This document shows positions 3,181 to 4,887 of a stretch of DNA of 64,000 nt, one piece after another. Under the pieces are notes generated by a model. The model did not search any database, was not told the origin of the DNA, and saw only the letters and a list, made by a program, of their open reading frames with translations. Origin of the DNA: an uncultured Planctomycetales bacterium (GTDB lineage: Bacteria > Omnitrophota > Gorgyraeia > Zapsychrales > Fredricksoniimonadaceae); NCBI GenBank assembly GCA_964520655.1, contig CAZFNI010000007.1:6398-70397 (forward strand), in the 5' to 3' direction. The translations under genes were made by a program, and so were the position numbers. Numbering within the stretch: position 1 is the stretch's first letter; each line of letters starts with the position of its first letter.

Positions 3181-4887
3181 ATGACAATGCGCACAATCAC
3201 AGTTTTATTAGTCATGCTGTTTTTGAGCGCGGCTGTTTTTTTTGTCAAAGACCTTCAGGCAACAATTATCTACGGCGACGATTCTCTGAATGCCCATACA
3301 GTTGAAGGTGACAGTGAAACCACGAGTACAGCTCCCGGCGCCGATCCTGAGCAAAACCCGACAGGGGACTGCTCACAGAATCCCAATAAATCCTGCAAAG
3401 CTTCAGCGACCCCGACAAAATTAGATTCTTGGGGAACGCCGTGCAAGTACATCACGGTCAATAATGGCAAGACTTTATTTATCCCCGCCAAGAGCATGGG
3501 GGAATGGAATAATTTTCTTTCCTGGGCATCAAGCAATAATGGGGGGACGGTTTCCTTAAATGATTGTGTCGACGGAACATGGTCAGGGTGGGGCGCTTGT
3601 GTGCCTAGTACCTGCGGCTTCGGTACAGAAACGCGGACCTGTGTGTATGCAAGTCCCTATAAAGGGAAAGACTGTAGTTTGCTTGATGGGGGCAACAGCA
3701 CCCGGCCATGCACAGATTATACGCTATGCACCTGCGGTTCAAATGATGCGAATTCATCGTTCTGTGCCGGCCAGGACATTAATTTCACGGCCATGCCTCC
3801 GCCAACGACATATGTGGAAGCTGGCGGTTGCGACGCGTCAACCAAATGCCAGGCGCAGTGCGGGGCGGCATATCATGTGATACCGGGCGGCTGCGCGTTG
3901 ACAACATATACCGGGACATATCCGGCGTGTCCATCCGGATGCGGGTATATGGGAGGCCCTGTGGCACCTTTAACGTGCACTCGCGATCATGATGGGGCCT
4001 CTGTGGCGGGCGCTTTTTGTGGCAATCAAAGTTGTCCGACAACAGCGCCGTGCTGTGCTGGCGTCATTGATTGTTTCGGCGTGTGCAACGGTGGCGCGGT
4101 CACTGATTGTGCGGGGACTTGCGGCGGCAGTGCGGTCACCGATTGCAACGGTGTTTGCGGTGGCGGTGCGCAGATTGATGTTTGCGGTGTCTGCGGCGGT
4201 AGCGGGAATACCTGTCCATGCGTGGGGGCAACGCCGTGCGGCAGCCCGGGGGCGTGTTATGCGGCGGATGCATGCGGCGTGTGCGGCGGTCCAGGGCCGG
4301 GTTGTACACCAAGTGCTCCGGTATGCGGGGCGCCTAATGTCACGGTATGCAGTCAATGTACAGATGGCTGCGGGATCACCTATGTGGATTGTAATGGATG
4401 TCTTGCTGAACCAGAGCCATGTTCAGGAGCAACGCCGTGCGGCAGCCCGGGGGCATGCTATGCGGCTGATGCGTGCGGTGTGTGCGGAGGGGATGGTTCA
4501 TCATGCGCGCCACCGCCTTGTGTCTATGATTGCAATGGCGTTTGCAACGGCGGCGCGGTCGTGGATAACTGTGGAGTTTGTGGTGGACCTGGTGGCTGTG
4601 GGGGCTGCGCGGGGACAGTGGATTGCAATGGTGTGTGCAATGGCGGCGCGGTCGTGGATAACTGCGGAGTTTGCGGTGGACCTGGTGGCTGCGGGGGTTG
4701 CGCGGGTACAGTGGATTGCAATGGTGTTTGTAACGGCGGCGCGGTCGTAGATGCCTGCGGTCAGTGCGGTGGAGACGGCAGCAGCTGTTGTGCCGGAGGA
4801 TCATTTGATTGCAATGGTGTCTGCAACGGTGGGGCGGTCTTAGATAATTGCGGCGTCTGCGGCGGCTCAGGCGGATGTGGGTATTGA
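3181..4887 (+). CDS. Secreted Cys-rich repeat protein. It has a signal peptide, a TSR-like module and ADAMTS-like CGVCGG repeats. The ORF track starts it at a GTG (3166); the ATG at 3181 with an AGGAG RBS is preferred.
   Basis: [21 protein letters not shown] signal peptide. [23 protein letters not shown] fits the TSR1 consensus. Repeated [20 protein letters not shown][PD]-G units. N-terminal domain is paralogous to gene 533..2980. Confidence 0.8.
   Translation: [568 protein letters not shown]
4528..4881 (+). repeat. Tandem 93-nt in-frame repeats (about 3.8 copies; copies 1 and 2 are ~90% identical) encoding the [31 protein letters not shown] units.
   Basis: Units start at 4528, 4621, 4714 and about 4804. 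Copies 1-2 differ at only a few wobble positions. A separate ~65-nt direct repeat occurs at 4231..4295 and 4429..4493 ([21 protein letters not shown]). Confidence 0.85.

Follow-up and report, generated by a model that had tools for sequence, protein, structure and literature searches.

Surface adhesins such as the streptococcal alpha C/Rib and the staphylococcal SD-repeat proteins carry variable-number tandem repeats (VNTRs), in which the DNA units are identical or nearly identical and length polymorphism is documented. A short cysteine-rich motif of about 25 residues with four conserved cysteines forms the tail of the ADAMTS cysteine-rich domain (Pfam ADAMTS_CR_3, PF19236, positions ~88-115; for example in ADAMTS5), and unnamed DCxGVCGG modules occur, nearly always in tandem, in proteins that marine and sediment bacteria secrete. 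Bacterial proteins with thrombospondin type-1 repeats (TSRs) are likewise on record, one of which (P0141) has a prokaryotic N-methylation motif and 16 TSP_1 domains. Here we describe a gene that appears to bring the latter two elements together, located at 3187..4887 on the + strand of a 64,000-nucleotide (nt) stretch of DNA from an uncultured member of the Omnitrophota (hereafter the window). The gene encodes a secreted cysteine-rich protein (P0001) whose C-terminal end is made of four in-frame units of a 93-nt tandem repeat, and we consider it quite probable that these units are old and stable in-frame duplications of a cysteine-rich module related to the ADAMTS tail, likely forming a disulfide-stapled extracellular stalk or binding array. 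Databases already contain the module, bacterial TSRs and, through the Pfam matches of homologues, the relationship to ADAMTS; what is new is this member, with its unusual partner domain.

A repeat search of the window placed the starts of the tandem units at 4528, 4621, 4714 and 4807, in frame with the + strand open reading frame (ORF) 3166/3187..4887, and Tandem Repeats Finder (TRF) reported the array at 4528-4862 with a period of 93 nt, 3.6 copies, 81% matches and a score of 393. Units 1 (4528..4620) and 2 (4621..4713) encode the same 31 amino acids (aa) and are identical at 85 of 93 nt (91.4%), all eight differences between them being synonymous and at third codon positions. Unit 3 (4714..4806), also of 31 aa, keeps the core but has a different linker and the CGGDGSSC ending that is typical of the family, while unit 4 (4807..4884) is cut to 78 nt, or 26 aa, by the stop codon at 4885-4887; both share 68-77% nucleotide identity with units 1 and 2. 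The first-pass annotation of this DNA had described in-frame 93-nt tandem repeats within a Cys-rich gene, with few third-position differences between the first two copies and more divergence in the third and fourth. This description is borne out for all four units, as is the view that they are intragenic repeats of a secreted Cys-rich protein that arose by unit duplication, although the array ends at 4884 and not at 4881, and the term 'near-identical' overstates a best unit pair of 91%. The best adjacent in-frame pair of 93-nt segments matches at 86 of 93 positions, whereas 2000 codon shuffles of 4033-4884 that kept the Gly/Cys-biased composition gave a mean of 39.9 (standard deviation 3.0) and a maximum of 54. 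The array is therefore far beyond chance even at this biased composition. The repeat is also spanned by an antisense 'shadow' ORF on the minus strand (4376-4903; 175 aa, with abundant Arg, His and Pro), which is not coding, since the differences between units 1 and 2 are all non-synonymous in its frame.

Each 31-residue unit consists of two 12-residue half-units, the first of the form DCxGVCxGGAxx, and a short Cys-containing linker. A 36-nt (12-aa) half-unit, DCxGxCGGxAxx, underlies both the tandem repeats and a second, dispersed repeat that lies upstream of them, and the C-terminal half of the protein comprises seven modules in all: one extended block, the two variants that make up the dispersed repeat, and the four tandem units. 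In the first module block (4069..4215, + strand), half-units begin at 4069, 4105 and 4141 (spacing 36 and 36 nt) and are followed by a closing stretch of 13 residues; AlphaFold2 (AF2) models this block with a predicted local distance difference test score (pLDDT) of 80-90. The two variant modules, each of 30 aa, occupy 4216..4305 and 4417..4506 on the + strand, and 4216-4289 matches 4417-4490 at 63 of 74 positions (85%) with a spacing of 201 nt. A dispersed repeat of 65 nt had been noted here before and does exist, but its second copy (4429..4493) had been placed 3 nt out of register: at the resulting offset of 198 nt only 25 of 65 positions match, compared with 55 of 65 at 201 nt. The longest exact internal repeat in the gene, a 26-nt match at 4228/4429, has its second copy inside dispersed copy 2, and a 13-residue motif of dispersed copy 1 is conserved in a distant homologue (P0005).

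A search with the whole of P0001 returned 272 homologues, nearly all of which align chiefly at the C-terminal half, with query coverage of 9-73% among the 120 best. These homologues carry 2-16 copies of CxGxC[GN]G / DxCGxCGG motifs, and their partner domains include Dockerin_1, Por_Secre_tail (of the type IX secretion system, T9SS), LRR, CBM96, pectate lyase and DUF7467; some family members are precomputed as PF27846 or PF26745. When aligned, the family, which is widespread among bacterial proteins that are secreted, yields a consensus module of ~25 residues that is repeated head to tail. In two homologues, P0004 (34 bits) and P0009 (25.9 bits), this module is matched above the cut-off of 21 bits by ADAMTS_CR_3, the match being confined to positions 91-115 of the ~115-residue domain. 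In addition, a profile of the family matches ADAMTS5 (chain 9rwm_A) with an E value of 3.3e-10, a match that is meaningful over 26 residues only. Unit 3 and the module at 4417 both end in DACG[QV]CGGDGSSC. By these alignments, the module is a homologue of the final ~25 residues of the ADAMTS cysteine-rich domain.

As in ADAMTS, a putative TSR lies N-terminal to the module in P0001. The two differ in that P0001 has only the tail of the domain, free-standing and repeated seven times, and is without the metalloprotease, disintegrin-like and spacer domains; its units also contain two extra cysteines in the GVC of their first half and another two in the GGCGGC of the linker. With the unnamed bacterial proteins P0001 has in common the module, the tandem layout and the lineage-specific in-frame duplication, whereas its partner is a rare TSR-bearing head and its host a member of the Omnitrophota. 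In-frame tandem repetition at the DNA level is also seen in module genes of unrelated bacteria (L004-L007), where the periods are 78, 105, 171 and 240 nt and the matches range from 67 to 97%; lineage-specific duplication is thus a property of the family, within which the array described here is of middling age. We found no experimental characterisation of the module in bacteria in the literature.

P0001 is 566 aa long, or up to 573 aa if the alternative upstream starts at 3166 (GTG) and 3181 (ATG) are considered, and contains 74 Cys (13%) and 106 Gly (19%); the exact protein is also encoded by assembly GCA_041910255.1. Its first 25 residues (3187..3261, + strand) form a predicted signal peptide, read from the sequence by its basic n-region, hydrophobic core and AxA-like end, and AF2 places a helix at residues 2-18 (pLDDT 81-88). 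The N-terminal head (aa ~50-250) is modelled by AF2 with poor confidence. Within it, the segment encoded by 3565..3729 on the + strand can be recognised, from its motifs and relatives, as a probable divergent TSR. The characteristic motif layout is present (WSGW, a 9-residue CxxxxCG-type element and TRTC), and a phmmer search with aa 1-288 identified proteins, matched at aa ~125-180 with E values of 4e-18 to 1e-4, that carry 5-16 Pfam TSP_1 domains. Taken alone, the segment reaches 20.5 bits (E 5.5e-4) against Pfam TSP_1 (PF00090), for a cut-off of 21.6, and the matching segment of the paralogue P0002 reaches 15.5 bits. The WxxW, CxxxxCG and R-x-C elements are thus shared with bacterial TSP_1 proteins such as P0141, from which P0001 differs in having a single, sub-threshold copy inside its head. 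An exhaustive phmmer search for relatives of the head found only 39 among 1.84 billion representatives, 9 of them below 1e-10, and in many of the hits the alignment is confined to residues ~125-180.

The head is shared with the upstream paralogue P0002 (533-2980), which is 43% identical over aa 1-343. The distant homologue P0005, 33% identical over residues 7-400, has the head and one CGVCGG-type module without the four-unit array. Since P0005 is without the array and the tail of P0002 is built from a different, 47-aa repeat, the tail is the evolutionarily plastic part of these proteins, and the head the conserved one. P0002 itself (815 aa) has an array of seven Cys-rich repeats of ~47 aa at about 1420-2440, of the type CPxCGGSxNTCxxGxPSGYxxGxCGGSxxWxCxxG…C, with further CGDGxC-type motifs at the end of the tail. 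At 1714-2050, TRF detected a period of 141 nt (73% matches), and the P0002 repeat array had no Pfam match.

AF2 models of P0001, based on alignments of 59-62 sequences, give pLDDT values of 80-94 for module residues and 60-64 for linker residues. They predict no helices or strands, only beta-bridges every 6 residues, and the low predicted template modelling score (pTM) is what a beads-on-a-string arrangement would be expected to give. Following Sec export, each module may fold into a compact, disulfide-stapled knot without regular secondary structure, so that the string of modules would act as an extended, protease-resistant stalk or as a multivalent binding array, presenting the TSR-containing head on or near the Omnitrophota cell surface. 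Such a role would be in line with the varied extracellular catalytic, binding and anchoring domains that the module accompanies in other bacteria. It would also agree with the proposed use of large extracellular proteins by Omnitrophota in adhesion between cells (PMC10066038).

The cysteines could instead serve a different chemistry, in which the CxxCxGxG-type motifs (CGVCGGxG) would coordinate a metal such as zinc, as those of the DnaJ cysteine-rich domain do, in place of forming disulfides. By eye, CGVCGG[P/D/S]G in P0001 does fit the CxxCxGxG pattern of the DnaJ zinc repeats, each module has four conserved cysteines, and the family profile weakly matches the zinc-finger region of DNAJA2 (E 0.016); metal binding would also make sense for a protein of an anaerobe whose capacity for oxidative folding is limited. 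However, the match to the extracellular ADAMTS5 cysteine-rich tail is far stronger (E 3.3e-10), the ADAMTS counterpart of the module is disulfide-bonded, the signal peptide is clear, and the homologues carry extracellular domains (dockerin, T9SS tail, CBM). We therefore regard metal binding as unlikely, and disulfide-stapled modules as the better supported arrangement.

We then considered the age of the array. For units 1 and 2, the Nei-Gojobori method counts eight synonymous changes among 23.7 synonymous sites (synonymous divergence, dS, ~0.45) and no non-synonymous change among 69.3 sites (non-synonymous divergence, dN, 0). With ~25% of random single-base changes being synonymous, the probability that all eight would be so by chance is ~2e-5. 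These values indicate that the duplication of units 1 and 2 is old and has been under purifying selection, a pattern that is the opposite of the recent homogenisation put forward in the first-pass annotation. It seems reasonable to suggest that units 1 and 2 stem from an old duplication and that selection has held the protein identical while synonymous sites drifted, in which case the DNA repeat would be the footprint of past in-frame module duplications and not an active instability element. Furthermore, neighbouring units share no in-register exact run longer than 23 nt, and with exact tracts of only 23-26 nt, the latter being the maximum for the whole gene, the array offers poor substrates for slippage or homologous recombination. 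The idea of a hotspot for such events, which had been raised before, does not sit well with these short tracts.

That idea can be stated more fully as one in which ongoing gene conversion keeps the units similar and a contingency-type hotspot varies a surface adhesin by slipped-strand mispairing or unequal recombination. In its favour, the units are in frame, in tandem and in a secreted protein, the family shows lineage-specific expansions of which some are very recent (such as the 240-nt repeat of L004, at 97%), and one contig from a short-k assembly ends within the gene, at 4458. This break, however, precedes the tandem array and does not coincide with a repeated 31-mer, and two assemblies have the same sequence and copy number. 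Contingency repeats have identical or nearly identical units with long exact tracts, whereas here the best pair matches at 85 of 93 positions with dS ~0.45, no in-register exact run exceeds 23 nt, and the other pairs are 68-77% identical. Like the VNTRs of surface adhesins, the array of P0001 has in-frame tandem units in an exported protein, with a tail that varies among family members; unlike them, it has a best pair of 91%, an exact tract of 23 nt and no length difference between assemblies. A contingency hotspot is, on balance, quite unlikely, and an old duplication maintained by selection agrees better with these data.

The comparison between assemblies was made with NCBI contig JAYRRC010000016.1 (GCA_041910255.1, 579 kb), whose alignment with the window spans 8980 positions, 201 of them different. 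None of these differences falls within 93-5066, a segment that covers both Cys-rich genes, and this second, independent assembly reproduces the copy number as well as all eight differences between units 1 and 2. The exact 566-aa protein is recorded from two NCBI contigs, of 117 kb and 579 kb. In addition, no k-mer of at least 28 nt from 4400-4900 recurs within the window, and the assembly is thus unambiguous at k of at least 31. Collapse or expansion of the repeat during assembly, which had been flagged as a concern, is unlikely given these observations. That short-read assembly created the present array has next to no probability in our view: although 93-nt repeats are a generic risk in a metagenome-assembled genome (MAG) and one contig does stop at 4458, a false expansion would yield identical copies and not synonymous-only differences, each unit is shorter than a read, the units have no k-mer of at least 28 nt in common and leave de Bruijn graphs unbranched at k of at least 31, the two NCBI assemblies agree base for base, and the reading frame is open to a natural stop.

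Several points nevertheless weigh against a stable array of ADAMTS-like modules at the cell surface. As a single sequence, P0001 matches ADAMTS5 weakly (E 0.067), and the whole protein, its C-terminal halves and its single modules match 0 Pfam families even at E values up to 10. The best Foldseek match in the PDB, to the metalloproteinase 6qig_A (which we take to be ADAMTS13), covers 23 residues at a root-mean-square deviation of 0.6 Å and 43% identity, with an E value of 3.6, and is too short for significance; the AF2 models, moreover, give no readable disulfide pairing. Inspection of the C-terminus of P0001 (…CGGSGGCGY) revealed no anchoring signal, and surface attachment is something we infer. 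With no divergence of any kind at 93-5066, the agreement between the assemblies tests the assembly but hardly the evolutionary stability of the array, and the same zero divergence limits the power of the copy-number comparison between the window and GCA_041910255.1, which showed no difference. Finally, the contig that ends inside the gene at 4458, a Logan contig of SRR26835473 (SRR26835473_106357), is identical to the NCBI contig, and its end could reflect population heterogeneity. Copy-number variation in the population may still occur. We note that this contig, from a short-k assembly, stops 4 nt past the 26-nt exact repeat (4429-4454); the causes considered for the stop are a drop in coverage, a strain variant, or similar sequence elsewhere in the metagenome.

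The gene stands at the head of a cluster of ~45 kb in which genes for modifying enzymes accompany many for large membrane proteins, YfhO-like and others, and we saw no recognisable terminator between the gene and its downstream neighbours on the same strand. Immediately downstream, at 4930-10387, lie three tandem paralogues on the same strand that encode polytopic membrane proteins of ~600 aa. They are 39-42% identical to one another and have many invariant residues (for example DFGREVY…PW and LPEG.MLNFLT.H). Searches for Pfam, NCBIfam and PDB relatives of the three returned only one weak PMT_2 match (E 0.04), and hhalign found no link between them and the YfhO-like proteins further downstream. 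The differences between the two assemblies form a mosaic along this part of the window, with 3 at 70-92, 0 at 93-5066 and 198 at 5067-8950. Those in the last segment peak at 30 per 250 nt and lie mostly at third codon positions, and the three membrane paralogues account for 61, 113 and 24 nt differences, corresponding to 27, 39 and 3 aa. The mosaic could be due to strain-level recombination, to a recent sweep of the Cys-rich block, or to a MAG consensus that switches between co-existing strains.

Beyond these paralogues, a same-strand run of ~40 kb (10380-50445) consists of genes for large membrane proteins of 600-865 aa, among them at least five with C-terminal YfhO matches (at 17507, 20713, 31113, 35905 and 42359). 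The same run encodes FkbM and class-I methyltransferases, sulfatase-like and spermine-synthase-like proteins, an asparagine synthase, and several oxidoreductases, namely amine and GMC oxidoreductases and a short-chain dehydrogenase (SDR); it is apparently a giant cluster for envelope or glycan modification. An amine-oxidase-like flavoprotein ORF (23082-24662) and a short-chain dehydrogenase ORF (24373-25452) overlap by ~290 nt as listed. Because the Pfam match of the dehydrogenase begins at residue 103, its real start is probably further downstream. HTTM-domain membrane proteins, which resemble vitamin-K-dependent carboxylases, are encoded on both sides of the cluster, at 56005-57462 in the window and at 1-1481 of the GCA_041910255.1 contig (L002), and the HTTM gene upstream of the window is followed by one for a radical SAM protein. 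Towards the end of the window, the Era GTPase (61977-62924) is 66-70% identical to Candidatus Omnitrophica/Omnitrophota proteins.

It is conceivable that both Cys-rich paralogues (533-2980 and 3187-4887) are dedicated substrates of the adjoining cluster, which would amount to bacterial glycosylation of TSR and ADAMTS-like modules, for example by Trp C-glycosylation or Ser/Thr O-glycosylation by analogy with eukaryotic TSRs. This suggestion draws on the adjacency of the genes and on the WxxW motif, each paralogue combining a TSR head that contains WxxW with a different Cys-rich tail, and we consider it very unlikely. The outcome, if this were true, would be a surface fibre or adhesin with heavy modification, belonging to an Omnitrophota cell that possibly depends on a host.

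The array shows that tandem repeats whose units differ at synonymous positions only can be old and stable, with no sign of phase variation or mis-assembly. More broadly, the end of the animal ADAMTS cysteine-rich domain exists in bacteria as a free-standing, tandemly amplified extracellular module, combined here with a probable TSR in a protein of the Omnitrophota, a group suspected of host-dependent lifestyles (PMC10066038). The finding bears on the origin of the modules of animal matrix proteins and on the surface biology of the Omnitrophota.

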